Of a stretch of DNA of 64,000 bases, positions 1,717-33,859 are shown piece after piece. The stretch is taken from IMG/VR virus record IMGVR_UViG_3300026534_000035, positions 1 to 64,000 of that record; one strand, 5' to 3'. Under the pieces are notes generated by a model, which ran no database searches, was not told where the DNA came from, and saw nothing but the letters and a program-made list of their open reading frames with translations. The stretch's first letter is position 1. Each line of letters starts with the position of its first letter. The position numbers and the translations under genes are program-made. The stretch comes from a virus.

Positions 1717-2440
1717 AATAGATAAAATAATAGAAAGTTGTTCTGTAGTAAGTAAAGTTTTAAAACATTTAAAAAAACATACTAAACAAGGAATGACAAC
1801 TAAAACACTTAATGTTTTAGCCGAAGAATTAATAAGAGAAGAGAATGCTTTACCAGGCTTTAAAAACTTTAATAACTACCCTTATGCTATTTGTGCATCT
1901 ATAAATGATATAGCTATACAAGGACTTCCCTGTGATAGACAATTAAAAACTGGAGATGTTTTAAAAATAGATGTTGGAGTATTAAAAGACGGATTTTATG
2001 GTGATGCCGCATTCACTATGGGAATTGGTGATATAGATATTGATGATGAAGTTCTTATTAATACTACAAAACAAGCCCTTTATAGTAGTATTTTAGTAGC
2101 TCAGGCAGGAAATACTATTAATTCCATTTCCCATGAAATACAAAAAACTGTTGAAAACAAAAAATTAACTGTCATAAAACAGTATGGCGGGCATGGCATT
2201 GGTAGAAGATTGCATGAGGAGCCGTTTATTAAAAATTTTACTACTAAAATAAATAGAGGACCGTTACTTAAAGAGGGAATGATTATTTGTATAGAACCTT
2301 TAGTAACAAAAGGAACAGACACATTAATTAGAACAGATAATGGTTGGTCAATGCGTACCAAAGATGGGGCCAATACAGCACATTTTGAACACACGGTACT
2401 AATAACAGGAAAATCGGCCGAAATATTAACTAAGAATTAA
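1691..2440 (+). CDS. map: Methionine aminopeptidase type I
   Basis: CASIND, IDVG..KDGFYGD, GHGIG..LHEEP, CIEP, AHFEHT metal-ligand motifs. Confidence 0.95.
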   Translation: MIYLKKLNEIDKIIESCSVVSKVLKHLKKHTKQGMTTKTLNVLAEELIREENALPGFKNFNNYPYAICASINDIAIQGLPCDRQLKTGDVLKIDVGVLKDGFYGDAAFTMGIGDIDIDDEVLINTTKQALYSSILVAQAGNTINSISHEIQKTVENKKLTVIKQYGGHGIGRRLHEEPFIKNFTTKINRGPLLKEGMIICIEPLVTKGTDTLIRTDNGWSMRTKDGANTAHFEHTVLITGKSAEILTKN

Positions 2441-2450
2441 AGGAGAATTA

Positions 2451-2903
2451 ATGAATTACGGATTAAGTTCTAAGCTGAGTGGGGTATATATCCCCTATGA
2501 TTTAGTTAGATCAAAAGAATTTATTGAATGGACCAAAAACCCAGAATTTAGAGTATGGATGTTTCTTCATGGATCAATTGTTAGAGCCAAAATGAAAAGA
2601 CATAAATTAGGTTTATATATTTTTGAAAAATTCTATTTGAACGGGCACGCTGTTTCATGGGCTACTCAAACAAAGATTTCCAATATGTTGAGTTATTCTG
2701 ACAAAAGTTTCGTGTCTCGTCAAATAAAACTATTAAAAAATAAAGGCATAGTAATTGAACACCAAGACAAGTTCAATGGAAAAAGAATTAAGCTTTATGA
2801 AACAGCGGAAGTATTAAGTTCAATGGACCAGCAAGAAGCAGTTTATGCTTTTGCTTATTTTCGGCAAAAAAACGCCGAAAAAAAACTATCAAAATTTTTA
2901 TAA
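2451..2903 (+). CDS. Winged-helix DNA-binding protein, possible replication-initiator N-terminal type
   Basis: ATQTKISNMLSYSDKSFVSRQIKLLKNKGIV HTH pattern; close to palindrome/AT-rich region. Confidence 0.55.
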   Translation: MNYGLSSKLSGVYIPYDLVRSKEFIEWTKNPEFRVWMFLHGSIVRAKMKRHKLGLYIFEKFYLNGHAVSWATQTKISNMLSYSDKSFVSRQIKLLKNKGIVIEHQDKFNGKRIKLYETAEVLSSMDQQEAVYAFAYFRQKNAEKKLSKFL

Positions 2904-2918
2904 AGGAGAATTAAGAAA

Positions 2919-3068
2919 ATGGCAGAAAAAGCTGAAGTAAAACTAGTAGTAAAAATGGGAGAGAAGGTTTATTCTTTGCCAATTGAAAAACTCCCAGAAC
3001 TGATCAAAGGTTATGGTGACGAGGTAGAAGATAAGGGTGTTATCGACACTATTTTGGATTGGTTCTAA
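2919..3068 (+). CDS. small hypothetical protein (49 aa, MAEKAEVKLVVK...ILDWF), absent from ORF track
   Basis: AAGGAG RBS upstream of ATG 2919; TAA 3066-3068. Confidence 0.65.
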   Translation: MAEKAEVKLVVKMGEKVYSLPIEKLPELIKGYGDEVEDKGVIDTILDWF

Positions 3069-3092
3069 TACAAAATAGTAAATAGTGTGCCG

Positions 3093-3157
3093 TTCATTAG
3101 TTGTCTCTCAGACAACTAATGGATGGTTCATTAGTTGTCTGAGAGACAACTAATGAA
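3093..3157. repeat. Nested palindrome: 29-bp inverted repeat whose arms are each palindromic
   Basis: ttcattagttgtctctcagacaactaatg-gatggtt-cattagttgtctgagagacaactaatgaa. Confidence 0.95.
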
Positions 3158-3159
3158 AG

Positions 3160-3280
3160 TTTATACCTTTTAATTAAGAATTAATAAGTTAATATAGTTT
3201 AAAACTAAATTAGGTTAATATAGTTTAAATTAAAATTAGTTTTTGAATTAATAATTTAACTTAAGTGAATTTTTTTTTCG
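3160..3280. other. Very AT-rich tract with 16-bp direct repeat (gttaatatagtttaaa at 3188 and 3214); candidate DNA-unwinding element of an origin
   Basis: Directly follows the nested palindrome. Confidence 0.5.
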
Positions 3281-3317
3281 ATCACCAACAACAAATGGTA
3301 AAAGGGGGATTTGCGCG

Positions 3318-3548
3318 ATGTTGTCAATAGAAGGAAATGTTGATGTGCTGATGGTTAATAAAACACTCACCACAAAACAAATTGGCCGGTCGGATGTGTT
3401 TTTAAACTTTTTCTGGAAAGGTTATAATGTTTCTTGTTACTGGGACGCAAAATCAAAAGAATTTATGTTGATTAATAGTTTATATGAATTTACTGAAGAT
3501 GAATTGGCTATTTTAAAGGCTAATTTTAGTAAAGCTTCTTTTTTATAA
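3318..3548 (+). CDS. hypothetical protein
   Basis: AAGGGGG RBS, ORF. Confidence 0.55.
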   Translation: MLSIEGNVDVLMVNKTLTTKQIGRSDVFLNFFWKGYNVSCYWDAKSKEFMLINSLYEFTEDELAILKANFSKASFL

Positions 3549-3705
3549 CTTGGTTGTTGACTGTTAATAGCCTTATTATGGGCCTAATTCGCTCTGTGTC
3601 GGCTTTTATTCGCTTAGGGTATACCACAGTATGGGTTACTAATAAAAACGCCTTTATGGTCGCGTTGTTGCGTTTAGATAAAATTAACGTTTAGGAGAAC
3701 TCATA

Positions 3706-3894
3706 ATGGTAGATGTAAGTAATATTTTTGGAATAGATATTTCTAATATAAAAAAGATATATTCTGTAGAATCAAGTAGTATATATACTATAGTGGGTAT
3801 TAGTATGAATGCTGGTCAGTCTTCTAACAGCCTTGATTTTGTTTTTTCTAGTTCATATAACCCACCGGATGGTGATTCTGTGGACTTTTTTTAA
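3706..3894 (+). CDS. small virion-associated protein
   Basis: AGGAG RBS; C-terminal FVFSSSYNPPDGDSVDF motif of the kind seen in phage tail proteins. Confidence 0.5.
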   Translation: MVDVSNIFGIDISNIKKIYSVESSSIYTIVGISMNAGQSSNSLDFVFSSSYNPPDGDSVDFF

Positions 3895-3921
3895 ATTTTT
3901 AAACAAAGGACATAGTATAAA

Positions 3922-5451
3922 ATGAGCAAAATATCGGATTATAAGATTGAAAAATTTACAAGTCTCAAAGATACTCCTAATACTTATGACCCAGGTAAAT
4001 ACGTAAAAGTGTTAACTAATGGATTGGATTATGATGTTGTTAATACTTCTACTAGTGGTTCTTCTGGCGGTGGATTAAATTATAATTATTATTTTGATAC
4101 AGCAGTTACAGGTACTGTAGCTAGTGGATGTGTTCAACTAAATGCCACCAATTATCCAGGTGTAAGCGAGGTAAACATAAGTTACTTTGATAAAGATGGG
4201 AATGATTTGTCTAATTGGATTAATAGCTGGGATGATAGTGATAAATCTGTGAAGGGTACATTGACTTTTCAAAGTGTGTCGTATGTAAATAAGTACGCTA
4301 TGTTTAAATTGGAAGAAACAGCTAATACAGTGTTCGGTTCTGGCAAAGATGGCGATGTTACTATTTCAGGGTCGGTAAATTTAAATACAGATATAGTTGC
4401 TTCAGGCAGATCTTACCCAGATATGGTTGCTTATAATGTGTCTTCTGTAGGGGCAAGTTCATGTCAAACAATGGCAACACCAAATGGTATTGTGTCTGGT
4501 GATGCAGTTTTGTTAATAAACTTACAAGGTGCAGGGTCTACTCAAGTCGATAATGTTGGAAATTACGAAATTTTCATTGTAGATTCTGTAGTAAATACAA
4601 CAGTAACTTTTAAATCTAATAAAACAAAACTTTATGGTAATAATGGTGGAGATTCTAATTTAGGTGTATCTCCTTCTAAACAAAGAGTTATGCTGATGAG
4701 AATTCCACAATATAATAACTTGACAATTGAGTCTGGAGCAGAGCTTTCAGGAAAGTCATGGGATGGTACCAAATATGGAGTAGTAGCCTGTATGGTTAAA
4801 AATTCAACTTCAGTAATCGGCTCTGTTGTATCTCCTATTGGTTATAGGGGTACTGGTGATCATGATGGAGAAAGTTACGGTGGTTTTTCTGGACTAGGTG
4901 GCGGCCACAGATATTGGTCAAATGGCAAAGGTGGAGGAAGTGGGGCTTATGCCTCTAATGGGTTGCCTGGTTTAAATGGTGGTTCTCCAGGTGGAACAGC
5001 TTATGGTGTAGCAGATTTATCAAAAATTTATTTTGGGTCAGCTGGCGGCGCCGAAAGTTCTAATAGAGGTGGGCATGGAGGAGGCATAGTTCTACTGTTT
5101 TCTAAAACATTAGATGTTTATGGTAATATCTCATCAAATGGTACTGGAGGGGTGAATTATGGTGGCAGTGGTGCAGGTGGTTCTATTTTATTAAAGTCTA
5201 ATAAATTAGCTGTATATTCTTCAACTATAGAAGCTCTTGGTGCTACTCGTATGAATGCTGGTAGTAATGGAAGAATAGCTATATACTACAATGCTTTAAT
5301 GGATTCTTTATCGGCTGTTAATCCCACGCCTTATACTGATTCTTTGACTTCTGGCGCTGATAAAATAAACTATAATGTTGCTTGGTTAAATAATAGTGGT
5401 AAATTTAATTATAATGAAGAAATAATAGTTTCTTATGCCTATAATTACTAA
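3922..5451 (+). CDS. Tail fibre/adhesin-like protein with glycine-rich domain
   Basis: FTSLKDTP module; FGSGKDGDVTISG, GDAVLLINLQG..VGNYE, RIPQYNNLTI, WDG, GGxGGGIV Gly-rich repeats. Confidence 0.75.
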   Translation: MSKISDYKIEKFTSLKDTPNTYDPGKYVKVLTNGLDYDVVNTSTSGSSGGGLNYNYYFDTAVTGTVASGCVQLNATNYPGVSEVNISYFDKDGNDLSNWINSWDDSDKSVKGTLTFQSVSYVNKYAMFKLEETANTVFGSGKDGDVTISGSVNLNTDIVASGRSYPDMVAYNVSSVGASSCQTMATPNGIVSGDAVLLINLQGAGSTQVDNVGNYEIFIVDSVVNTTVTFKSNKTKLYGNNGGDSNLGVSPSKQRVMLMRIPQYNNLTIESGAELSGKSWDGTKYGVVACMVKNSTSVIGSVVSPIGYRGTGDHDGESYGGFSGLGGGHRYWSNGKGGGSGAYASNGLPGLNGGSPGGTAYGVADLSKIYFGSAGGAESSNRGGHGGGIVLLFSKTLDVYGNISSNGTGGVNYGGSGAGGSILLKSNKLAVYSSTIEALGATRMNAGSNGRIAIYYNALMDSLSAVNPTPYTDSLTSGADKINYNVAWLNNSGKFNYNEEIIVSYAYNY

Positions 5452-5462
5452 GGAGCAAAACA

Positions 5463-5896
5463 ATGCCAGATAAATATACTAAGTTTTTAATGCATGGTGA
5501 TTCAACGAGAACTGGTTTTTCATTAATAGATAAAACAACCATAACTGCTGAACAAAAAATAATAGGGTCCCATTCTATTAAATGTGTCGCATCAGATGAG
5601 TCACATTTAAGTTGGTCGGACTCCTCAATTCAGGTGTATATAGATCTTTTGTAGGTACATGGTCTGGAGGTAATTCAGCATCTGATCCTACTTCTGATAC
5701 TTCAGGAAAATTAAAGATAAGCAGATTTGGTAATACCATACATATGTATTATTGGAATGATAGTTCATGGGTTTCACATAGAGATAATACAGAATATGTT
5801 TCCGGAACAATTGAGATCTCTTTACTTACGGCGACAGAGAATGCGTGCAGCATAACAGTAGATTATGATAATTTTGTAAGATATGCGGTGTTGTAA
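5463..5896 (+). pseudogene. Frameshifted chimera of two lectin-like virion gene fragments
   Basis: RBS+ATG, DKYTKFLMHGD LamG-type N-terminus, frame change near 5625 into an unrelated beta-sandwich C-terminus (GKLKISRFGNTIHMYYW...VDYDNF). Confidence 0.6.
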
Positions 5897-5936
5897 TGAA
5901 TTAAATTATTTATAGAAATAGTTTGAGGAGAAGACC

Positions 5937-7604
5937 ATGGGTATTTCGTATAAGTCTTACCGAAGCAGTAAGATTCCCAAAAAGAATGCTATTAATTCTA
6001 ATAGTCAAGAAGTAGTTACTGAAAATGGAATTAAAAATTATGTAGATTCCCACTCTAGTACGGCCTCAGGAACTGCAACAGAATGGGATCTTGTTTCATC
6101 TAGTAGCCAAGCAGTTGAGGGGCATGGTTATTTGGTGGATACTTCTGCGGGTGAGGTTACGTTGACATTACCTTCTTCGCCATCAACCGGAGATAAAATT
6201 TCTATAGTTGATTTAAAGGGTACTTTTGATACTCATAAATGCATTGTAGCAAGAAATTCAAACAAAATAATGAGTCTTAATGAAGACCTGGAATTGATTA
6301 ATGAAAATAATTCGATTAGTCTTGTATATTCTAACTCCAGTGAAGGTTGGAGAGTAGTAGATTCTACTCCGCTGAGTTCTGATGAGAATTCAGTAATAAA
6401 TGCTCCATTACTTCATATTCAAGAGCAGCAGCCTAATGGAACAAATGCGGGCAATTCTGTTTCTGGAATGAATCAAAGAACTTTAAATACTGTTGTTACT
6501 AATGAAATTTCAGGAGCCTCTTTAAGCTCTAATATGGTTACTTTACCAGCTGGTACTTATTGGTTAGAATGTAATGTTCCTGGTTGGGGAAGTGGTGCTT
6601 ATCACAAACTACTAATACGGGATGCTAGTGATAATAACTTACTGTTTGCTACTGGACCTTACTTGAATAATGGGACGGCTAATAACATAATTATTAGTGA
6701 TAGATTAAGTCTTACAACGACAACTACAATAAAAGTCGTTCATTATATAAGCTCTGGTGCTACAGATGGTTTAGGCAGAAAGGGTGATAATGCGTCAGCT
6801 ACTGGAGCCCCAGAAGTCTATACGGATTTAAAAATTTGGCGCCTGGACCAAAAGATTCAAACACCTGTAGTGGCCAAGCCCCCTAATACAGTTGTTTCTG
6901 GAGTCCTTGTTACTGGAAATATAATGGGCTTAGATTATGAAATGAGTAGTGGTAGTCCTGATGATACTGTAGTTATTAAACCTGGTTCGTGTATGGATGA
7001 TACTTTACAAGAAGAAATAATACTAACTTCTAACACAAATTTAGTTTTATCTTCGCCTAATATTAATACCATTTACCATTTATTTGTTACCAAAACATCT
7101 GGAGTGGTAGGTGTAGCTTATGATAGTGATGAAAATGGTGTAAATGTGACTGCAGATTATAAAAGATGGGTTGGTTTTGTTAGAACAAATAGTAGTGGTG
7201 ACATTTGTAAATTTGTAATGCAAGATAATTTATATTTTAATACACGTGCTTCAGAATCAATTGCTATTGATAGTATAACAACAACTTCAACTTTTGCTCT
7301 TATAGATATTTCTAATATTGTGCCTATTAATAGAATTAATGGTGTTATCATGGGCGCAAAAAGTAATAATACATCAACTTATATAGTGAACTTTAGTTCT
7401 GATGGTATAGGCACTGGAATGAGTATCGCAGCTACACCTAGCAATTGGGCATCTAGAGTAGACGATGGTGATTCCGCATTTTTAGCTCATAATTATTCTA
7501 ATGCGACAATTATGTTGTATAATAGTGGATTATATATAAATAATGGTAAGGAAACATCAGGTTCAGTTAAAATTTTGGTTAGGGGAGCTACTTTAAAAAG
7601 ATAA
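5937..7604 (+). CDS. Tail fibre protein
   Basis: VDTSAGEVTLTLPSSP..GW module, TLPAGTYW domain; paralog of next gene. Confidence 0.75.
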   Translation: MGISYKSYRSSKIPKKNAINSNSQEVVTENGIKNYVDSHSSTASGTATEWDLVSSSSQAVEGHGYLVDTSAGEVTLTLPSSPSTGDKISIVDLKGTFDTHKCIVARNSNKIMSLNEDLELINENNSISLVYSNSSEGWRVVDSTPLSSDENSVINAPLLHIQEQQPNGTNAGNSVSGMNQRTLNTVVTNEISGASLSSNMVTLPAGTYWLECNVPGWGSGAYHKLLIRDASDNNLLFATGPYLNNGTANNIIISDRLSLTTTTTIKVVHYISSGATDGLGRKGDNASATGAPEVYTDLKIWRLDQKIQTPVVAKPPNTVVSGVLVTGNIMGLDYEMSSGSPDDTVVIKPGSCMDDTLQEEIILTSNTNLVLSSPNINTIYHLFVTKTSGVVGVAYDSDENGVNVTADYKRWVGFVRTNSSGDICKFVMQDNLYFNTRASESIAIDSITTTSTFALIDISNIVPINRINGVIMGAKSNNTSTYIVNFSSDGIGTGMSIAATPSNWASRVDDGDSAFLAHNYSNATIMLYNSGLYINNGKETSGSVKILVRGATLKR

Positions 7605-9482: not shown

Positions 9483-9558
9483 GGGGATGTAGCTCACCTG
9501 GGAGAGCACCTGCCTTGCACGCAGGAGGTAGCAGGTTCAAGTCCTGTCGTCTCCACCA
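9483..9558 (+). tRNA. tRNA-Ala(TGC)
   Basis: GGGGATG/CGTCTCC acceptor stem with G3.U70, anticodon loop CTTGCAC, GGTTCAAGTCC T arm, encoded CCA. Confidence 0.97.
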
Positions 9559-15307: not shown

Positions 15308-16906
15308 ATGTCTAAGAAGATGTCAATAGATTTTATTAGGTCTTCTTTTGAGGAGGAGGGGTATGAGTTATTATCTAAAGAGTATTTTAATTCCTCTAAA
15401 CCATTAAATTATCGTTGTAATAACGGCCATGAGTATCAAGTATCTTGGAATAAATGGAGGTCTGGAAGAAGGTGCCCTTTTTGTAATCCGAAAGGGCGCG
15501 TGAGAAAAAGAACCATGGATTCTATAAAATCTGAGATGGCTGACGAAGATTATGAGTTGTTGACAGAAGGAGAATATAAAGGAAGTAAACAAAAATTATT
15601 ATGTCGTTGCCCAAAAGGGCACGAATATATAACATCCTGGGATGCATGGAAATATAAAGGGCATAGATGTAGTGTATGTAGTGGTAATATAAGATTATCC
15701 GTGGGTTTTATTAGTAAGAAAATGTTGGAAGAGGGTTATAAACTATTAACATCAACTTATTCCAATGCTTATAGTAAACTCACTTACCTTTGTCCTGAAG
15801 GGCATAAGGGAACTACTACTTGGGCAAATTGGTATAAAGGCAATAGATGTCCCGTTTGTTCTGGTAAGAAGAAACATGATATACATCATATAAAAAATGT
15901 TTTTGAGTCTGAAAATTATAAGCTATTAAGTAAAGATTATTATAATTGTAAACAAAAGCTTGAATTTGAATGTAGTAATGGGCATCGCCATGAAATAACT
16001 TGGAATAATTGGACACAAGGGCAACGGTGCTACAGGTGTAGTTGTTGCGGTGTGTCAAAAGATGAATTAGAGATATTAGATTATATAAAAAACCTTGGAT
16101 TTAAAGTTATTGAACGAGATAGAGAATTAATAAAACCATACGAATTAGATGTCGTGATTCCGGGTAATAAATTAGCCATAGAATATTGTGGACTATATTG
16201 GCATTCGGAATTATGTGGAAAGAATAGTAATTATCATATCAATAAATTAACACAGTGTAGACAAAGAGGGTATAGACTTATTACTATTTTTGAAGATGAA
16301 TATTTGAATTATAAGGATTTGGTGCTTTTTAATATAGCATTGAAATTAGGCGTGGCTAAGGCTAAGGTGTTTTATGCCAGAAATACAGAAGTTAGGGAGA
16401 TACCAACTTATGTGGCAAAAAATTTTTGTAACAAAAATCATTTGCAAGGATATAGTGGGTCAAGGATAAAACTAGGCTTGTTTCAGGATGATTGTTTATT
16501 ATCAGTTATGACTTTTTCTAAACCTTCTATATCTAAGGGGGCTAAGTATTATAATGAAGGTTCATATGAGTTAAGCAGATTTTGTACTAAGAGTGGGTGT
16601 AGAGTAATTGGTGCGGCTTCAAAATTATTGAAGTTTTTTATCAGAAACTATAGTTGTGAAAATCTGTTTTCATATGCAGATAGAAGGTGGTCTGATGGAA
16701 ATTTGTATTATAGTATAGGATTTAGTTTATCAGGAATAAGTAGGCCTAATTATTGGTATATTAAAAATGGCAAAAGGTTTCACAGGTTTTCTTTTAGAAA
16801 AAAGGATTATGAACCTAAAGAAGTCAGTGAATGGGAATTAAGACGTAGACAAGGATTAAATAGAATCTGGGATTGCGGCAATCTAAAATTTGAATTAAAT
16901 AAATAG
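15308..16906 (+). CDS. Hef-like free-standing homing endonuclease with four zinc-ribbon repeats and C-terminal GNAT/Mom-like domain
   Basis: 4x Y.LL...Y.....L...C..GH....W..W...RC..C; ELDVVIP..LAIEYCGLYWHS; IFEDE; NHLQG, YELSRFC, GAASKLL, SYADRRWS.GNLY. Confidence 0.8.
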   Translation: MSKKMSIDFIRSSFEEEGYELLSKEYFNSSKPLNYRCNNGHEYQVSWNKWRSGRRCPFCNPKGRVRKRTMDSIKSEMADEDYELLTEGEYKGSKQKLLCRCPKGHEYITSWDAWKYKGHRCSVCSGNIRLSVGFISKKMLEEGYKLLTSTYSNAYSKLTYLCPEGHKGTTTWANWYKGNRCPVCSGKKKHDIHHIKNVFESENYKLLSKDYYNCKQKLEFECSNGHRHEITWNNWTQGQRCYRCSCCGVSKDELEILDYIKNLGFKVIERDRELIKPYELDVVIPGNKLAIEYCGLYWHSELCGKNSNYHINKLTQCRQRGYRLITIFEDEYLNYKDLVLFNIALKLGVAKAKVFYARNTEVREIPTYVAKNFCNKNHLQGYSGSRIKLGLFQDDCLLSVMTFSKPSISKGAKYYNEGSYELSRFCTKSGCRVIGAASKLLKFFIRNYSCENLFSYADRRWSDGNLYYSIGFSLSGISRPNYWYIKNGKRFHRFSFRKKDYEPKEVSEWELRRRQGLNRIWDCGNLKFELNK

Positions 16907-21809: not shown

Positions 21810-23534
21810 ATGGCATCTGATTATTCTGTTGTAATGGAGCAAGGTAAGAGGTTAATAGAGTTTTATAGACAAAATCCTTGTATAGCAGCTTATGACTTAT
21901 TGGGTGTTGATTTGGCTCCTATTCAACGCCTTGTTTTTAAAGATATGTGGTTTAAAAACTATGTTATAGCCGTTTGTGGAAGAGGGGCAGGTAAAACGTA
22001 TCTATTAGGTCTTCTTGCTACATTAAGTGGATTACTTTATCCCGGATATAGAGTTGGTTTAATTGGTCCTGTTTTTAGGCAATCAAAAATGATTTTTTCA
22101 GAAGTAGAAAAGCTATATTCTAAATCTTCTATTTTGAGACAGGCGTGTGTTAAAAAGCCTACAAGAGGTTCTGACTTATGCTATTTGCAATTCAAATCGG
22201 TAGGTGGAAATAATGGATCCTACATAGAAGCACTTCCTTTGGGAGTAGATGGAGGCAAAGTTCGTGGGTCTCGTTTTTATTTAATTGTAATAGATGAGTT
22301 GGCCCAAGTTCCTGATAAAATACTTGACATGGTGGTTAGACCAATGGCTGCGACTTCCTTGGAACCTATGGAAAATGTCCGTAGAATAGAAAAACAAACA
22401 CGTTTAATAGAGTTGGGACTAGCTACAAAAGATGACTTCGAGGATTCTACAGTAAATAAAATAGTTATGGCGTCGTCTGGTTATTATAAATTTAATCATA
22501 TGTGGCGTAGAATGAAAGATTATTGGCGCCAGCTGGATGAAGCCCAAAGACGTGGTGAAGAATGCCAATATGCTGTTTGGCAAGTTCCATATCAAGATTT
22601 ACCAGACGGCTTCTTAGATTTAAATAACATCAATGAAGCTAAGCGAGTTATGTCTTCAGTTGAGTTTCAAATGGAATATGAAGCCGTTATGATTTCTGAT
22701 TCAGAGGGGTTTTTTAAGGCATCATTATTAGATAATTGTACTTTTAATAGCGGTGTAGTTTTTGAAGAAGTTGGAAAAAAGGGTTATAAATACATAGTTG
22801 GGGTTGACCCAAACCAAGGTGGTGATGCTAGTTGTGGTGTATCTATAATTAAATGCTCGCATCCAAATGAGTTAGTAAATGTATATGAACTTAAGGGAAA
22901 AACTACCCAAGAACTAACTATGTTTATTCAGGATATAATTAAAAAATTTGATTGTTTTATTTACATGGATCGCGGCGGCGGCGGAAAAGCAATAATGGAT
23001 TTATTAGAAGAGGGCTATAATGATTCAAAACCAGTCATAGATGTAGAAAATCCAGACAATAGATTTAAAGAAGGTAAACGTATATTACATATGATTAATT
23101 TTACTCCAACTTGGATTTCTGATGCTAATTTTGCTACATTATCTATGCTGGAAGATAAAAATTTAAAATTTCCAGAACCCCCTGTTTCTAGTATAGCAGA
23201 TGATGAGGCTTTGGCATTTGAGAGAGTAAAGATACTGAAATCCCAGATGTTAAATATTGTAGTTAGTCAAACTAGGACTGGGGTTTTACATTTTGATACT
23301 CCTAGAAAAGGCCAAAACAAAGACTTGTATTCTTCGTTGATTTTAGCTGCGTATGGAGTTAAAGATTATGAGCACTCATTAGAAGAGGATACCTCCCCTG
23401 TGTTATTTAATAGTGGTGGTATGCTGCGCCCGCATGATAAATCTAATTGGAATGAGCTTACTTCTGGTAACGTGCCTGGTAATGCTATAACTAATTCCGC
23501 AGCACTTTTGGCAGGCAAAAAAAGAATTAAATAA
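21810..23534 (+). CDS. terL: Terminase large subunit
   Basis: Walker A GRGAGKT, Walker B LIVIDE, coupling MASS, FQMEYEA, nuclease IVGVDP, YMD, KDLYSS. Confidence 0.93.
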   Translation: MASDYSVVMEQGKRLIEFYRQNPCIAAYDLLGVDLAPIQRLVFKDMWFKNYVIAVCGRGAGKTYLLGLLATLSGLLYPGYRVGLIGPVFRQSKMIFSEVEKLYSKSSILRQACVKKPTRGSDLCYLQFKSVGGNNGSYIEALPLGVDGGKVRGSRFYLIVIDELAQVPDKILDMVVRPMAATSLEPMENVRRIEKQTRLIELGLATKDDFEDSTVNKIVMASSGYYKFNHMWRRMKDYWRQLDEAQRRGEECQYAVWQVPYQDLPDGFLDLNNINEAKRVMSSVEFQMEYEAVMISDSEGFFKASLLDNCTFNSGVVFEEVGKKGYKYIVGVDPNQGGDASCGVSIIKCSHPNELVNVYELKGKTTQELTMFIQDIIKKFDCFIYMDRGGGGKAIMDLLEEGYNDSKPVIDVENPDNRFKEGKRILHMINFTPTWISDANFATLSMLEDKNLKFPEPPVSSIADDEALAFERVKILKSQMLNIVVSQTRTGVLHFDTPRKGQNKDLYSSLILAAYGVKDYEHSLEEDTSPVLFNSGGMLRPHDKSNWNELTSGNVPGNAITNSAALLAGKKRIK

Positions 23535-25290: not shown

Positions 25291-27168
25291 ATGAAATCAG
25301 AGGATATTCAAAAAATAACTAAAGAGTTGAAAGAAAAATTTCCTGAAGTAGGTATAGAAAGCATTGATGTTGACGAGACTTCAGGTAAATCCACGTTTTA
25401 TTTAAGACCCACTAAAAAAACACTGGCTTTTTTAGATAATCAAGGGGCGGTAATTCCGAAACAATATCAGGAAAAAGCAGCTGTTATCAATAGAGATGCT
25501 ATAAATAGAAGTAATTTGGACTTATTAAGGGGCGTTGCTGATGCTTATACCGAAACACCCATCAACGCGTTTAAAAGGGCCATAAAATATTATTTTGTAA
25601 ACCCATTGGTTGGGTCGTCTGTGGACTTGCTGTCCGCTTTAACTTGTAAAGGTTTTGAGAATGATATTGATGATGATAAGATTAAACAGTTTTATGATGT
25701 GTGGGCATTTGATGTAGACTTTAAACAGGTTTTGGATTGGATTGCCTTAGATTTTTTTAAGGTAGGGCAGGTGATAACTTACAAAGTTGTAGCTAAATAT
25801 GAACCCAGGGTTTCTTACTTATCTCCTGTACCAGGAACTAAAATAAAGAAACCATCCAAAAAATCGGCAGGACTAGAAACAGCGGCTAAGAAGAATATTT
25901 GGTCAAAAGGCCATTTGCCCATAGCTTATACAGTTTTAAACCCCACTCTAACTACTATAGAGGGTAATTTATTGTTTGATAAAGTTTCTGTTAAAATAAC
26001 CTTACCGCAAGAATTAACTGGGCTGCTTAAAAAGCCTAAAAATGAGCTTACTGAAAATGAAAAGGATTTAATAAAATCTCTGCCCGCGGATTTAAAAAGG
26101 GCTGCTGAAAAAGGCGGAGAATACCAACTTGATTCTAGATTAATAGGTATTATAAATTACAGAAAGCAACCTTATGAAAGGTATTCCAGACCTAGAATAG
26201 GAAGAATTTTTGATGCGTTAGAATATAAAAGACAATTACAAGAAGCAGATACTAGCACTTTAGATGGTATTTCCAATTACATCCTTAAAGTGACTATTGG
26301 TAATGATGAATATCCTGTGACTCAGCAAGAAGAGCTTACTGCTGTTGCTAATTTATTTAATACCACTAGTAAAAGTTTTGACGTGGTATGGAATCACACT
26401 CTACAGATAGAAAAAATAGTTTCCCCTGAAATTGAAGCTATTTTAGGGCAAGATAAATATAAACAAGTTAATGAAGATATTACTGGTGGTTTATCTATTC
26501 CAAGAATGATGTTGGATGGTGTAGGAGAATTGGGTACAGCAGAATCTCAAATGGTTTCCAAAAGTATTTCTGAATTGGTAACATACGCTAGAAATCAAAT
26601 TGAAGGATGGATTTACATGGAATATAGACAGATAGCAGAAACTATGGGTTTTGATAGGTTTCCTAAAATTCGTTGGGATGAAGGTATTCTTAAAGATCCT
26701 ATTTTATACATGAATACTTTAGCGGCATTGGTGGATAGACGCATGATAAGTTACAAAACTGCATTAGAAGAGCTGGGGTATGATTATCCTAATGAAGCCA
26801 ACAATATGAAATCAGAATTTGATTTAGTTCAGTCAGGTATTTTCGGAATTATAGGATCCCCTTGGCAACAAGCTAAAACACAGCCTTCACAGGGCGCACC
26901 TACTGGTTCTCCCTCACAGGGTAGACCTAAGGGACAAACTAATACCAAGACTAAGGAGACCGCTCCTAGTGCTCAAAGAGGACAAAAACCAAACCAAAAA
27001 TTACAAGATTTAAAGAAGAAAGCCGCCTCTTTAAAGATAATTGAAAATATACCAGAAATGACAGCAAAACAATATGCCGCTTTTTTGGACGGAGCTAAGG
27101 AAATACTTAATGAAGATGAATTTGCTGTATTTTTAGACAATGTTTCAAAAGTTAGGTTTGGTGTGTAA
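25291..27168 (+). CDS. Portal protein
   Basis: Position after TerL; YYFVNPLVGSSVD, RKQPYERYS.P, FPKIRW, C-terminal QGRPK linker. Confidence 0.8.
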   Translation: MKSEDIQKITKELKEKFPEVGIESIDVDETSGKSTFYLRPTKKTLAFLDNQGAVIPKQYQEKAAVINRDAINRSNLDLLRGVADAYTETPINAFKRAIKYYFVNPLVGSSVDLLSALTCKGFENDIDDDKIKQFYDVWAFDVDFKQVLDWIALDFFKVGQVITYKVVAKYEPRVSYLSPVPGTKIKKPSKKSAGLETAAKKNIWSKGHLPIAYTVLNPTLTTIEGNLLFDKVSVKITLPQELTGLLKKPKNELTENEKDLIKSLPADLKRAAEKGGEYQLDSRLIGIINYRKQPYERYSRPRIGRIFDALEYKRQLQEADTSTLDGISNYILKVTIGNDEYPVTQQEELTAVANLFNTTSKSFDVVWNHTLQIEKIVSPEIEAILGQDKYKQVNEDITGGLSIPRMMLDGVGELGTAESQMVSKSISELVTYARNQIEGWIYMEYRQIAETMGFDRFPKIRWDEGILKDPILYMNTLAALVDRRMISYKTALEELGYDYPNEANNMKSEFDLVQSGIFGIIGSPWQQAKTQPSQGAPTGSPSQGRPKGQTNTKTKETAPSAQRGQKPNQKLQDLKKKAASLKIIENIPEMTAKQYAAFLDGAKEILNEDEFAVFLDNVSKVRFGV

Positions 27169-28827: not shown

Positions 28828-28929
28828 AACTGATTAGTTTTAGGAATAGGATAAGGAATTAATAATAAAAATACTAAGAATAGATTTTTAATGTCAGGTT
28901 GGTATTAAATTACATAGGAGGTATTATTG

Positions 28930-29643
28930 ATGGATGAAAAACTTTATGAGGATATTAAGTCTGTAGTTGCTAAAATTTTTTCAGAAAAAGAAGAATCTGA
29001 AAAAGTTGCGCAGACCGAAGAAGCTCTTCGTGAAGCAGCAGATACAATTGCTGATTTAACTACTACGCTTGAAAAAAGAAATGAGGAATTGAAGGTTTAT
29101 GAAACTGAAGCCACAGAATTAAAAGAACAAGTTTCTACTTTTGAATCTGAGCTTGAGGCAGCCCAGGAAGAGAAGAAAGAACTTGAGACTAAAATGGCTG
29201 AGGTTGAAGCGTCGCTCGAAGATATTAAGAAAGACAGACTTTCAGAAAAAAGAATGGCTGAGTTGGAAGAAGCGGGTGTTAAGATCGCTGATGATGAGGC
29301 TCAGACAGCTAAAGTCAGAGAAATGTCTGATGAGGAATTTGTTTCATATAAAAGTGAATTGGTTTCTATTCGTGAATCTGTTGTGGCCGAATTGGCAAAA
29401 AATAAGGAAAGTTCAACAGATGACAACGCAGAAGACTCCGGAAAAACTGCAAGTACAAAGGCAGCTGATGAGAAAGCCAGTGATGGAGATGATGATGGAG
29501 GAGATCCTCCTCCGGCAAACATTGATAAAACAAAAGCAGTTACAGCTGCTTTAAATTTTGAAGGCCGTCCTTCAGATGATATGATTGCTAAATATGCGGA
29601 GTTAGGAAAAGCGTTGGCGGAAGAAATGAAGAAGTCTAAATAA
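28930..29643 (+). CDS. Scaffolding protein
   Basis: Acidic coiled coil upstream of capsid genes. Confidence 0.7.
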   Translation: MDEKLYEDIKSVVAKIFSEKEESEKVAQTEEALREAADTIADLTTTLEKRNEELKVYETEATELKEQVSTFESELEAAQEEKKELETKMAEVEASLEDIKKDRLSEKRMAELEEAGVKIADDEAQTAKVREMSDEEFVSYKSELVSIRESVVAELAKNKESSTDDNAEDSGKTASTKAADEKASDGDDDGGDPPPANIDKTKAVTAALNFEGRPSDDMIAKYAELGKALAEEMKKSK

Positions 29644-29678
29644 TTTTGTTAGTAATTTAATTAAGGAGGAAAAAGGAT

Positions 29679-30344
29679 ATGTTTGTACCAAGACATCCTG
29701 TTGTTGAAAACCAATTCTGTACTTATGGTGCGCAGACGGGGACCGGATCAGCTGGAGTAGGCGGTGTTATTTGTTATGCTGGAGCTGCCTTATACCTATC
29801 TAATAGTGCTGCTAATCAAGAGGCCATAGTGTACAGGTATGATAGAGTAAGTACCGAACCTACAAATGCTGATGAGCGTGTGCCTTTTGGTTTATCTATG
29901 CAAAAGGTAAAGACTGATTATCACCAAGTTCATCCTACAATGTATTTTATGCCTGGTGATTTAGGGTCTAGTGATGTTATCGCTGCTCCTACATATGATG
30001 GCGCGGGTAATATTACAGGCACCGCTGAAGCTCCTGTAGGTGTGGCACATCTAGGTATTTGGGACACAGTACATTATACTGCAGAGTTTACAGGTACTGC
30101 TGGAACAAATGCAGTTGTTTCTGCTGCTATAGCTCCTGGTGCTCTTATGTATGTGGCTGCAAATGCTGGCGCTAGACTTACTACAAGTAATTCAGCTGCT
30201 GGTAGTGATACATATGATGGAAAGCGTCTGCCTCATGTGACCACTGTTGTAGCCAGAGTGTGTAAAGGTGTTAGTGCTGCTAAAGCTACAGCCAATATCA
30301 ATAACGTTACGCTTTACCCCATCAGAGTGAAACTGATGGTTTAA
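29679..30344 (+). CDS. Capsid decoration/minor head protein
   Basis: Gly/Ala-rich, directly before MCP; PFGL, GIWDT.HY, PGALMYV..GARLTT. Confidence 0.65.
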   Translation: MFVPRHPVVENQFCTYGAQTGTGSAGVGGVICYAGAALYLSNSAANQEAIVYRYDRVSTEPTNADERVPFGLSMQKVKTDYHQVHPTMYFMPGDLGSSDVIAAPTYDGAGNITGTAEAPVGVAHLGIWDTVHYTAEFTGTAGTNAVVSAAIAPGALMYVAANAGARLTTSNSAAGSDTYDGKRLPHVTTVVARVCKGVSAAKATANINNVTLYPIRVKLMV

Positions 30345-30414
30345 TTTTATAAAAAAATGGGATTAAGGCATGTTTTAATGCTTCCCAAATTATTTCAAGG
30401 AGGAGTTTGATATT

Positions 30415-30597
30415 ATGGAAAGACAAGAAATGATGGAGCTTTTTAGAGCTACTGCTGACATTAATACTAAAGAAGGCATAGCTGCTTATAGGGCTTTTGC
30501 TGCTGCCATTACAACTCCTATCCTGCAGAAGGTTGAATTGGAATCTATTATGAGACAGTTGTTTGCCGTGGAGCGTTTGGGTCCCGGCGCACAGGCT
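30415..30597 (+). CDS. Major capsid protein exon 1 (61 aa)
   Basis: AAGGAGG RBS; ends ...PGAQA at a U that pairs with the IGS ggcctgt (30622-30628). Confidence 0.88.
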
Positions 30598-31669
30598 TAA
30601 TGGTACTCACTGGGGGTATACGGCCTGTTAAAACTTTGCTATATGCTGGAAAATCCTAAAGCCGTCCTTTACTGATATGGTGATAATAAGGAGGATATAT
30701 GGACAATCATGCAGGTAACTTATTAAAGTGTTGTAGTACTAATTATTTGGCTGGTTTGATAGATAGTGATTTTGGAGTTTACATACATAAGTTTTTTCCA
30801 AGAGGAAAACTACAGTTAAGACCTACAATTCAGTTTGTTAGTGCTAATAAAGATATAATTGAGGTTTTACATCAAGTTTTTAAAAGTGTTAATATAAACC
30901 ATCATATTGCACATAGAAAAGGCACTGTGAGTAGAGACAAAAAGGAATTGACTATTTCCAGATTATCTAAATGTAGAGACTTTTCTGAATTGTACAAGGC
31001 CAGTTGTGTAGTAAGACGCGGGCAGTTAGAGCTAATTTCTAAATATTGTGCAAACAGATTATTTATGGTAGATAATTATGGATGGAAACAAAATAATACT
31101 CCATATACTAAATATCAAATGACTTTATATGATGAATTATCTTTTTTAAATAGTAATTATAATAAAGATTATGGGTTTAGAAACCGTACTTTATCATGGT
31201 TAGCAGGTTTTATAGATGGTGATGGTTCCTTTTGTTTTGTAGTAACTAATAAAAATAGAATTATCCCTACTTTGGATATTATTACTGGATCTGATACTTG
31301 TTTAGCTAATTTGATTGAAATTTTTGATGCCGCGGGCATAAAATATTATATTAGAAAATCTCCATCTAAAGCTACTAAAAGAATTAAAACCAATAAAATA
31401 TATAATATATATATAAGATCCTTTAATTCTTTATTTAAAATATCTAACTTACTAAAAGATAAATTGATTATAAAGCATCAGCAATGTAAGAATATTATTG
31501 ATTATATTAATTTATGTAATGAATGTAGATCAATAACATATACTAAGTCTGATATAGTTTGTAGAAATAAAATATTAAACACTAAATAAGACACCTCAGA
31601 GACTAATACGCAAAGCACCTAATGGTGATGATAGAGTCCACTTATTATAGAAATATAATAAATTAAGTG
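30598..31669 (+). mobile_element. Group I intron 1 in major capsid gene (1072 nt)
   Basis: P1 acaggcU/Ggccugu; P3 ctttgc/gcaaag; P tgctggaa; R ctcagagacta; S gatgatagagtcc; P9.0 actt/aagt then terminal G; P10 actggg/cccagt. Confidence 0.9.
30699..31589 (+). CDS. Intron-encoded double-motif LAGLIDADG homing endonuclease
   Basis: YLAGLIDSDFG and WLAGFIDGDGSF; AAGGAGG RBS; lies between Q and R elements. Confidence 0.92.
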   Translation: MDNHAGNLLKCCSTNYLAGLIDSDFGVYIHKFFPRGKLQLRPTIQFVSANKDIIEVLHQVFKSVNINHHIAHRKGTVSRDKKELTISRLSKCRDFSELYKASCVVRRGQLELISKYCANRLFMVDNYGWKQNNTPYTKYQMTLYDELSFLNSNYNKDYGFRNRTLSWLAGFIDGDGSFCFVVTNKNRIIPTLDIITGSDTCLANLIEIFDAAGIKYYIRKSPSKATKRIKTNKIYNIYIRSFNSLFKISNLLKDKLIIKHQQCKNIIDYINLCNECRSITYTKSDIVCRNKILNTK

Positions 31670-31684
31670 GTTTACCCAGTCGCT
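31670..31684 (+). CDS. Major capsid protein exon 2, 15-nt micro-exon (VYPVA)
   Basis: GTT TAC CCA GTC GCT between intron 1 terminal G and intron 2 P1; restores an in-frame AQA-VYPVA-EDF. Confidence 0.85.
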
Positions 31685-32596
31685 AAATCATTTGGCGCCC
31701 TATATAGTAATATGTAGGTGAAAAAGAGAACTATATGCTGGAAACTCCTGTTAGGCTTTAAGTACCAAAGTGTAAAAATCTTAAAGATAGGGACAATCAG
31801 CAGGGAAGCCTTTTTTATTGGCCCCTCAACGACTATGAAAAGGAACAATTACATGAAGAAAAATCTTCACACACAAACAAATAGTAAGTACTATAAGCTT
31901 TCTTTATTAGCATCCATGGCTTTATGGGATGGTCATATAACTAAAAAAGGAAGATTATGTGTTAGACATAGCCAAAAACAACTAGAATACTTACAATGGA
32001 AGGCTGATTTATTGTATAATGCTTTTGATAGAAAAGTAAACGTTAATAAGTATGGTGGTAAATATCCATACTGTGAAATATCTTTTACAAATGACATAAC
32101 TAAACGTTTAAGAAAGTTATTATATATAGATGACAAAAAAACTATTAGTCAGTCAGCTTTAAATTTATTAAAAACTTCTGTTGCTTTATTAATAATGTAT
32201 TTAGATAATGGTTGTTTAGTCTTGCATAAGTTTAAGAATGATAAAACTAAAATTAAAAGTAGAGAAATATATCTATCTAGCCATTCTTTTGGTTATAGTG
32301 GTAACGAAATGTTAAAATGTTGGTTTAAGCGTAACTTTAATATTACCACTAGTTTAAGAAAAGATAGAGGCCGTACTTACATCGCTTTTAATGCCACTAA
32401 TGCTAATAAACTTTTAAATTTGTTTGATGCTGTTCCTGACAGTATGGTGTATAAGATTGATATGAAATACACTTACCCACGTTCTCCTTCCTTATAGGAA
32501 GATGATATAGTCTGAACTCATAGGAAACTATGAGAGGGAAAGTCGAAGAACTTTCCCCGCCTAGTTTTTATACTAGGTCATAAAAGTAACAGAGTG
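31685..32596 (+). mobile_element. Group I intron 2 in major capsid gene (912 nt)
   Basis: P1 cgcU/Ggcg; P3 gagaac/gttctc; P atgctggaa; Q aatcagcagg; R ctcaacgacta; S gaagatgatatagtct; P9.0 actc/gagt then terminal G; P10 aaatc/gattt. Confidence 0.9.
31853..32497 (+). CDS. Intron-encoded LAGLIDADG_2-type homing endonuclease (start 31835 or 31853)
   Basis: SMALWDGHI, HSQKQLEYLQWK, IMYLDNG, S.HSF, SMVYKI; inserted between P7 5' strand and P3 3' strand. Confidence 0.85.
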   Translation: MKKNLHTQTNSKYYKLSLLASMALWDGHITKKGRLCVRHSQKQLEYLQWKADLLYNAFDRKVNVNKYGGKYPYCEISFTNDITKRLRKLLYIDDKKTISQSALNLLKTSVALLIMYLDNGCLVLHKFKNDKTKIKSREIYLSSHSFGYSGNEMLKCWFKRNFNITTSLRKDRGRTYIAFNATNANKLLNLFDAVPDSMVYKIDMKYTYPRSPSL

Positions 32597-33469
32597 GAAG
32601 ATTTCGAGATTCCAGTTTGGGTCCTTCCTGGATTAGGATATGTAGCACAGAATTTTATTGAAGGCATTGGAGAAGAGGTGTATGTTCCCACTTTTACAAT
32701 CGATGCCTCAGCAGATTGGAAATTAACGTATGCACGTGACTCTCGTATTGATATTGCTCAACGTGCAGCTGCTAGAGTAGCCAAAGACTTGGCTAATTAT
32801 GAGGAAGAGTGTGGTTGGCGTGTAATTATGCCCGCTGCTACTTCTGCTTTTTCGGGTAAAGGTTTGTTGGGTTCTCGCCCAGCTCCTATTTATGAAATTA
32901 GCAACGCTTCTACAGGTGCTGGTTATTTGTCAAAGGAGCTGATTAATAAAATGATGGTGGGTTTCAAAAGAATCGGCCGTCAGTTAACTGACATTTATAT
33001 TTCTCCTGAGGACGCTGCTGATATTCGTGAATGGACTGACACAGATATTGATCCTGTCACTAGACGTGAGATTTTTCAGGCTTCTGGTATGGGATCTATT
33101 TGGAGTGTTAGGCTCCATGAAGTACAGCACTTAGGAGCTGTTGGGTTGTACAATATCAATGGTCATTCATCTCAGTATGGTAAATTTATTGCTGATAGTG
33201 GGGAAAGTTATAACGCTTATACTTTAGATAACCCCAATGTTACCAATGCTGATGGTACTATAGCTACTTTGGGCGAAACACAGATTATAGGTTTTGATTT
33301 GTCTACAAACGATTCACTAGTCATGCCTATCAGAAAAGAGTATGAAGCTCTTGAAGATCCAACTTTATTGCGTAGTCAAAAACAAGGCTTTTTTGGTTGG
33401 GCTGAATTAGGTTTCGCATGTTTGGATAGTAGAATGCTGGGAATTGGTGTTATTGACCGTAGTTTATAA
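32597..33469 (+). CDS. Major capsid protein exon 3 (290 aa); spliced product 356 aa, probably HK97 fold
   Basis: EEVYVPTF, IYISPEDAADIREW, QGFFGWAELGFA; position after scaffold/decoration genes. Confidence 0.88.
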   Translation, partial: EDFEIPVWVLPGLGYVAQNFIEGIGEEVYVPTFTIDASADWKLTYARDSRIDIAQRAAARVAKDLANYEEECGWRVIMPAATSAFSGKGLLGSRPAPIYEISNASTGAGYLSKELINKMMVGFKRIGRQLTDIYISPEDAADIREWTDTDIDPVTRREIFQASGMGSIWSVRLHEVQHLGAVGLYNINGHSSQYGKFIADSGESYNAYTLDNPNVTNADGTIATLGETQIIGFDLSTNDSLVMPIRKEYEALEDPTLLRSQKQGFFGWAELGFACLDSRMLGIGVIDRSL

Positions 33470-33483
33470 AATGAAAAAAAGAG

Positions 33484-33523
33484 TCAATGTGCTCTGTTAG
33501 TAAAAGGGTGCAGAGCACATTGA
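33484..33523. other. 13-bp stem-loop after MCP (stabiliser or terminator)
   Basis: tcaatgtgctctg...cagagcacattga. Confidence 0.7.
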
Positions 33524-33538
33524 AACTTAGAATGGTTT

Positions 33539-33859
33539 ATGATGTTTTATAAATTAATTTTTGCAGTGGTAGTTACTGAAGCTTTTACTGAATTAATTAC
33601 TAAGGCTGAAATAACAGAGCCTATTAGGAAGTTTATATTTACTAAAGGACATAAGAACAGGGTTTTTAATTGGTTACATAGGTTATTGGATTGTGGGTAT
33701 TGTACGTCGGTTTGGATAGGTGCGTTTATGGCGTTGTTTTTATTTAAGGATGTTCATTTTGTGACCCCTTATTTGGATTGGTTGTTTATAGGATTGGTGC
33801 TTCATAGATTTTCTAATGTATTACATTTTGTAATTGATAAGCTTAGAGGATCAATGTAA
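33539..33859 (+). CDS. Small membrane protein, DUF1360-like
   Basis: T.LIT...I.EPIR; LLDCGYCTSVW; hydrophobic helices. Confidence 0.7.
   Translation: MMFYKLIFAVVVTEAFTELITKAEITEPIRKFIFTKGHKNRVFNWLHRLLDCGYCTSVWIGAFMALFLFKDVHFVTPYLDWLFIGLVLHRFSNVLHFVIDKLRGSM

Follow-up and report, generated by a model that had tools for sequence, protein, structure and literature searches.

Capsid genes interrupted by introns have been described in several bacteriophages. Pope et al. (2013, PMC3706429) demonstrated splicing of such an intron in mycobacteriophage LittleE by reverse transcription-PCR and N-terminal sequencing, and the same paper cites one in the capsid gene of Tuc2009, a lactococcal phage. In crAss-like phages of the Delta and Zeta groups, Yutin et al. 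(2021, PMC7886860) found capsid genes cut by group I introns with endonuclease domains, one such gene, given as an example, being in five fragments. According to the account in PMC3073962 (citing Landthaler and Shub 1999), orf182 of Staphylococcus phage Twort contains three group I introns and is subject to exon skipping. We have analysed a 64,000-nucleotide stretch of viral DNA (the window; positions 1 to 64,000 of IMG/VR record IMGVR_UViG_3300026534_000035), which is part of an 80-kb record, about 29% complete according to CheckV, of an uncultivated phage from a hydrothermal-vent metagenome. An earlier note, made from the letters alone, had proposed that the major capsid gene in this window is split by two group I introns around a 15-nucleotide (nt) micro-exon, and both the intron-less homologs and the matches of the intron halves to the Rfam group I model agree with this proposal. 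It is very probable, in our view, that two mobile group I introns, independent of each other and each bearing a LAGLIDADG gene, interrupt the only capsid gene found on the record, and that this gene is spliced across the 15-nt exon to a product of 356 amino acids. The evidence consists of the exon structure, family membership in sequence and structure, covariation and the distribution of the introns among relatives.

The exon structure follows from comparison with intron-less relatives. A blastn comparison with the intron-less viral locus L001 aligned 30300-30597 and 32597-33591 of the window and left exactly 15 nt of L001 over; these encode VYPVA and are the same as the window micro-exon at 12 of 15 bases, with the three differences being synonymous. 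The joined frame (61+5+290 codons), as put forward earlier for positions 30415-30597, 31670-31684 and 32597-33469, predicts a protein whose length is matched exactly by 75 of the best 120 homologs from a search with the exon 3 protein (631 homologs in total). Exon 1 has 95% identity to residues 1-63, and exon 3 has 96% identity to residues 66-356, of the intron-less homolog P0003. The earlier note had further predicted the junction AQAxYPVAEDF in intron-less homologs: in the nine whose junction was read by eye, all run ...(G/A)PGAQA-VYP(V/I)A-EDFE(I/V)PVW..., and the segment is therefore AQAVYP(V/I)AEDF throughout. More widely, a five-residue xYPxx segment is present at the junction in 79 of the best 80 of 255 viral loci, as VYPVA in 56 of them, while Y63, P64 and A66 are invariant in an alignment of 24 sequences. 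A degenerate pattern coding for VYPVA has a single occurrence on both strands of the window, at 31670, with 0.04 expected by chance; a search of viral contigs for the degenerate micro-exon pattern gave L103, unrelated and GC-rich, as the sole match. These comparisons confirm the predicted three-exon structure, exact in its coordinates and frame (Table 1). An AGGAGG ribosome-binding site lies upstream of exon 1 and the first codon of intron 1 is an in-frame TAA. As had been anticipated, programs that call open reading frames (ORFs) miss the micro-exon: they give a 61-aa ORF and a 291-aa ORF, the latter starting at the GTG that closes intron 2, and the database entries from this contig (P0001 and P0002) are the 291-aa fragment.

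Table 1. Coordinates of the capsid gene, its introns and the neighbouring packaging genes in the window, and of four related capsid loci.
Feature	Positions	Strand	Description
Capsid exon 1	30415-30597	+	61 codons; last bases CAGGCT (ends in U)
Intron 1 (site A)	30598-31669	+	1072 nt; predicted group I; after codon 61; last base G at 31669
Endonuclease gene 1	30699-31589	+	296 aa; putative double-motif LAGLIDADG (LAGLIDSDF, LAGFIDGDG)
Micro-exon	31670-31684	+	15 nt; GTTTACCCAGTCGCT = VYPVA
Intron 2 (site B)	31685-32596	+	912 nt; predicted group I; after codon 66; last base G at 32596
Endonuclease gene 2	31853-32497	+	214 aa from ATG 31853; putative LAGLIDADG_2; alternative in-frame ATG 31835
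Capsid exon 3	32597-33469	+	290 codons + TAA
Terminase gene	21810-23534		upstream of capsid gene
Portal gene	25291-27168		upstream of capsid gene
L091	3413-5050	-	introns after codons 58 and 66; 24-nt exon AQAVYPVA
L100	1479-3060		site-A intron and 239-nt ORF-less intron within codon 71; 29-nt exon
L093	about 2230-6710	-	four introns, after codons 66, about 89, 137 and 213
L095	2441-6707		four introns, same codons as L093

Such a structure might also result from a chimeric assembly, or from a defective phage whose capsid gene is dead, given that the record is an incomplete metagenome assembly. However, short contigs of a different study cover 31504-31882, comprising the end of intron 1, the micro-exon and the start of intron 2, with zero differences; since these contigs carry identical junctions, the arrangement is not an assembly artefact. 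The junctions are also covered, again with zero differences, by a 36.6-kb contig that may come from the source sample, and both endonuclease ORFs and all of the exons are intact. We therefore give hardly any weight to a chimera or a dead gene. An exact search of metagenome contigs for a spliced or intron-less junction of the window's own allele found none, and no RNA run was found to contain the sequence. One apparent joint, from 30477 to 32792, had only 27 letters on its shorter side at 85% likeness and was treated as a relative or a chance match.

By family match, predicted structure and covariation, both inserts appear to be group I introns. Each has a U before its 5' splice site and a G at its end and, in agreement with the earlier description, a P1 helix with a U.G pair at the splice site. 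In intron 1, P1 joins ACAGGCU (30591-30597) to GGCCUGU (30622-30628) with 7 of 7 pairs, the P10 guide GGGUAUAC (30614-30621) lies immediately 5' of the P1 guide, and P3 (CUUUGC/GCAAAG), P4, P5, P5a, P6, P7, P8 and P9 are present. In intron 2, P1 joins GUCGCU, which is nt 10-15 of the micro-exon, to GGCGCC (31694-31699) with 5 of 6 pairs; the cgcU/Ggcg pairing proposed earlier is the same P1, and Rfam's own P1, which also uses the micro-exon GUCGCU, and RNAalifold both return it. The P10 guide of this intron, AAAUCAUUU (31685-31693), pairs with exon 3 as AAAUC(A)UUU/GAAGAUUU, with 8 pairs and one bulge (8 of 8 pairs in the related loci L090, L096 and L123), this P10 too covaries in relatives, and the helices P2, P3 (GAGAAC/GUUCUC), P4, P5, P5a, P6, P7 (GACUAU/AUAGUC), P8, P9, P9.1 and P9.2 are found. 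Inteins are ruled out by an in-frame stop within the first 11 codons of each intron and by the ribozyme core.

The intron halves were scanned separately with the Rfam group I model (RF00028; gathering score, 50). The 5' and 3' halves of intron 1 gave 14.9 bits (E=0.073) and 32.0 bits (E=4.7e-7), and those of intron 2 gave 35.1 bits (E=9.1e-8) and 26.8 bits (E=2.1e-5). All four halves are thus matched by the group I model, a check that the earlier note had named, with each score below the gathering score. A search of the phage's own genome gave matches confined to the capsid gene. No intron was reported when 30400-32800 was scanned at E<=10, or the whole window at the gathering threshold; with the model split by the ORFs, such long scans miss both introns. 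Nor was any intron reported at this threshold in six related loci (68.7 kb). One of these, L093, nevertheless proved in a narrow scan to have a 280-nt ORF-less intron exactly at the intron 2 site; its score of 71.8 bits (E=1.6e-18) exceeds the cut-off of 50, and speed filters therefore lose such introns. The core and 3' end of the L093 intron are clearly homologous to intron 2.

Covariation was assessed with RNAalifold on relatives with introns at the same site. For site A (the window, L097 and L100) this recovered P1, P4, P5, P5a, P7, P8 and P9; at the distal pair of P1 the window has A-U, L097 has G-U and L100 has U-A, and inspection of the alignment shows that P3 covaries (CUUUGC/GCAAAG, UUUCGC/GCGAAA and UCUUGC/GCAAGA). 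For site B, P1, P2, P4, P5, P5a, P9 and P9.1 were recovered, and compensatory changes occur at 14 of 40 predicted pairs in one half and 6 of 22 in the other. The site-B P1 is GUGGCU/GGCCAC in four relatives and GUCGCU/GGCGCC in the window, a G-C to C-G double change; P3 covaries on inspection (GAGAAC/GUUCUC versus AAGAAC/GUUCUU), and further compensatory pairs are present in P2, P5a, P9 and P9.1.

Both introns contain an intact ORF for a putative homing endonuclease, with two LAGLIDADG motifs and a Pfam match above cut-off in each case. ORF 1 begins in the 3' strands of P5 and P4 and fills the P6 loop, and its ribosome-binding site, AAGGAGG, is in the 3' strand of P5a. It matches LAGLIDADG_3 (27.2 bits; cut-off, 22.5), Hom_end (25.5; 21.1) and LAGLIDADG_1 (22.1; 23.1), has 46-54% identity to the ORFs of the site-A introns of L097 and L100, and is weakly similar to I-OnuI-type enzymes in the PDB (E=4e-3). 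ORF 2 matches LAGLIDADG_2 (66.5 bits; cut-off, 25) and phrog_11023, with the motifs MALWDGH and MYLDNGC. Its position, uncommon among intron ORFs, is between the 5' strand of P7 and the P3' strand, where relatives have only 2-3 nt, and its last eight codons run through P3' into P8. The ORFs of the site-B introns of L090 and L096 are located in P6 instead, and share 23-24% identity with ORF 2. As site-B introns have an ORF at the P7-P3' position, in P6 or not at all, one ribozyme lineage would have gained different endonuclease genes in different places, and this turnover appears to fit the usual cycle of gain and loss of homing elements. A search for close relatives of either endonuclease in viral contigs gave distant matches only. 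Elsewhere in the window, at 15308-16906, a 532-aa ORF has PHROG matches annotated as HNH or homing endonuclease (phrog_559, E=5.7e-131) and a weaker match to Mom-like DNA modification; this ORF is apparently free-standing, outside any intron.

Some points weigh against two functional introns in a sole capsid gene. Every half-intron match is below the Rfam gathering score and that of the 5' half of intron 1 is weak; the splitting of the model by the ORFs keeps the scores below 50. A second capsid gene elsewhere in the genome is possible, as most of the genome is missing from the record. We infer splicing itself, endonuclease activity and the history of homing from the DNA sequence. In the core of intron 2, about 640 nt separate P7 from P3', and a closing stem at the ends of this insert is no better than in shuffled sequence, both of which could hinder folding. 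The last two observations raise the alternative that intron 2 no longer self-splices, so that it needs its own LAGLIDADG protein as a maturase or a host factor, or that the allele is crippled. LAGLIDADG maturases are known in fungal mitochondria. However, introns of subgroup IA accommodate additional helices (P7.1/P7.2) at the P7-P3' position, the core helices of intron 2 are all intact and covarying, the exons have not decayed relative to the intron-less proteins, and the allele was recovered in two studies. Hence, we consider a dependent or crippled intron 2 to be improbable and favour two introns that are both still spliced.

The micro-exon is predicted to serve both ribozymes, as the earlier note had supposed: its nt 1-8 are the P10 partner of intron 1 and its nt 10-15 the P1 partner of intron 2. 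The P10 of intron 1 is not, however, the ACUGGG/CCCAGU pairing proposed previously, which uses the same G-run in a displaced register that is not conserved in relatives and has no equivalent in the site-A relative L097, where the P1 loop is only 8 nt long. The pairing of GUUUACCC with GGGUAUAC, at 7 of 8 pairs, is the better candidate because this register covaries in two relatives, tracking synonymous changes in the exon (GUGUAUCC/GGACGCAC in L097 and GUAUAUC/GAUGUAU in L100). The late pre-mRNA would fold into two ribozymes. Intron 1 would select its 5' splice site through P1 and hold the micro-exon through P10, while intron 2 would select its 5' splice site at the far end of the micro-exon and hold exon 3. 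Two guanosine-initiated splicing reactions, in either order, would then produce the mRNA for the 356-aa protein. The idea that the micro-exon may impose a splicing order does not hold: the two guide pairings use separate nucleotides, and no obligatory order follows from the sequence.

Two other outcomes of splicing can be considered at this exon. Skipping, in which exon 1 is joined to exon 3 and a 351-aa protein is the main product, might be promoted by the core sequence shared between the ribozymes (about 55% identity over P3-P6), and the three-intron gene of Twort provides, in the account of PMC3073962, a precedent for skipping between similar introns. However, the five residues are retained in all but one of the 80 relatives, with three of them invariant, and the guides in both introns are matched to the micro-exon; skipping as the main route is extremely improbable. 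It is also conceivable, though rather unlikely, that splicing of the capsid mRNA is cooperative, ordered or dependent on an intron-encoded LAGLIDADG maturase, as the guides cover the micro-exon almost wholly and the core of intron 2 is oddly split. None of these modes has been described for a phage. If one of them did apply, this capsid segment, with mini-exons 15, 24 and 29 nt long and three combinations of intron sites among three related phages, would be a natural test bed for the shortest exon that two group I ribozymes can share.

Introns at the two sites are found separately in relatives of the capsid gene. A site-A intron without a site-B intron is present in L097-L099, L101 and L102, while a site-B intron without a site-A intron is present in L090, L094, L096 and L123; the site-B intron is ORF-less in L093, L095 and L091. 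Three of the four introns of L093 and L095 bear endonuclease ORFs, the site-B intron being the one that does not, and their codon-137 intron also occurs in L097-type loci, with ORFs that are 75% identical. Introns elsewhere in the family lie near codons 89/90, 137, 205 and 213. Most loci are intron-free: an intron at site A or B is present in 0 of the best 80 of 255 viral loci, 79 of which read straight through the junction, and nearly all 80 were matched by tblastn in one stretch over residues 1-356. The site-B intron pattern was found in 119 stretches of metagenome contigs, of which only 3 are capsid loci. Four insertion sites fall within codons 58-72 of this family, and the single-intron alleles together with the other mini-exons (24 and 29 nt) mark these codons as an intron hot spot. 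To judge from this distribution, the allele of the window combines two elements that move separately and that lie in the stretch where the protein is most conserved. Both elements would target this stretch, and the most probable origin of the double-intron allele is that they homed into it one after the other.

The ribozyme of intron 2 has relatives beyond the capsid family. Its 5' core is 78-85% identical over 64-147 nt to introns of the AR9/PBS1 terminase gene and of SPbeta-like, Acinetobacter and Clostridioides phages; annotation of AR9 gives its terminase gene as a join of five pieces. These introns belong to the same broad ribozyme lineage as intron 2 but differ in gene, insertion site and guide sequences. 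At 32492-32534, other contigs of the same community match intron 2 over the P7'/P9 core alone and differ beyond it, which suggests that more introns of this lineage exist in co-occurring genomes.

The capsid gene of the window resembles those of the crAss-like phages in that endonuclease-bearing group I introns cut the major capsid gene and were found by comparative metagenomics. It differs in that the capsid family and phage lineage are unrelated to theirs, in that the introns are only 15 nt apart and in that single-intron and intron-less alleles are documented; ribozyme structures, guide pairings and micro-exons are not part of the crAss-like study (PMC7886860). As in LittleE, the most highly expressed virion gene contains a group I-type intron whose ORF is LAGLIDADG-like. 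Unlike the single introns of LittleE and, as cited with it, Tuc2009, two introns flank a 15-nt exon here, and they are known from sequence alone. Twort, so far as PMC3073962 describes it, is similar in having one gene with several group I introns that are related to each other, which makes skipping an obvious risk for a micro-exon, although the gene is a different one. Introns in capsid genes are thus less exceptional than the earlier note had suggested, since they have been published, including several per gene (PMC3706429, PMC7886860). Our literature search turned up no report, for any phage, of two complete endonuclease-bearing group I introns with an exon of 15 nt between them. Micro-exons do occur in fungal mitochondrial cox1 and other genes, in conserved segments that have accumulated LAGLIDADG-bearing group I introns; these are organellar, whereas the exon described here is in a late gene of a bacteriophage. 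The 15-nt exon between two full introns is a difference of degree and is nothing new in kind for phage group I introns.

The locus provides a clean comparative case of an essential phage gene that gene callers report incompletely, a five-codon exon being invisible to them. One 15-nt exon can, on the predicted pairings, hold the recognition sequences for two ribozymes together, and introns with homing endonuclease genes accumulate where the capsid protein is most conserved. Annotation of metagenomic phages should therefore expect split capsid genes and join them by means of intron-less relatives.

The identity of the protein as a major capsid protein was assessed through its intron-less homologs. 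P0003 matched phrog_2522, annotated as major head protein (E=1.6e-13), with a match that spans the junction region, and a profile of the intron-less homologs matched gp27, the structurally solved major capsid protein of Bacillus phage G (PDB 6wkk_A, E=1.6e-15). The Pfam family Phage_capsid gave 12.6 bits, under its cut-off of 24.2, and an AlphaFold2 model of the capsid protein from a shallow alignment had a mean predicted local distance difference test score of 33. Genes for the terminase and the portal precede the capsid gene, which is the single capsid locus on the record. By sequence and gene order this would be an HK97-type major capsid protein, the fold itself being predicted. Directly upstream of it, 28927-30344 contains an ORF for an acidic, coiled-coil, scaffold-like protein and a 221-aa ORF rich in Gly and Ala, neither of which has a Pfam or PHROG match. 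A tRNA gene lies at 9483-9555 (Rfam, 62.9 bits), with an anticodon loop, CUUGCAC, that was read as UGC (Ala).

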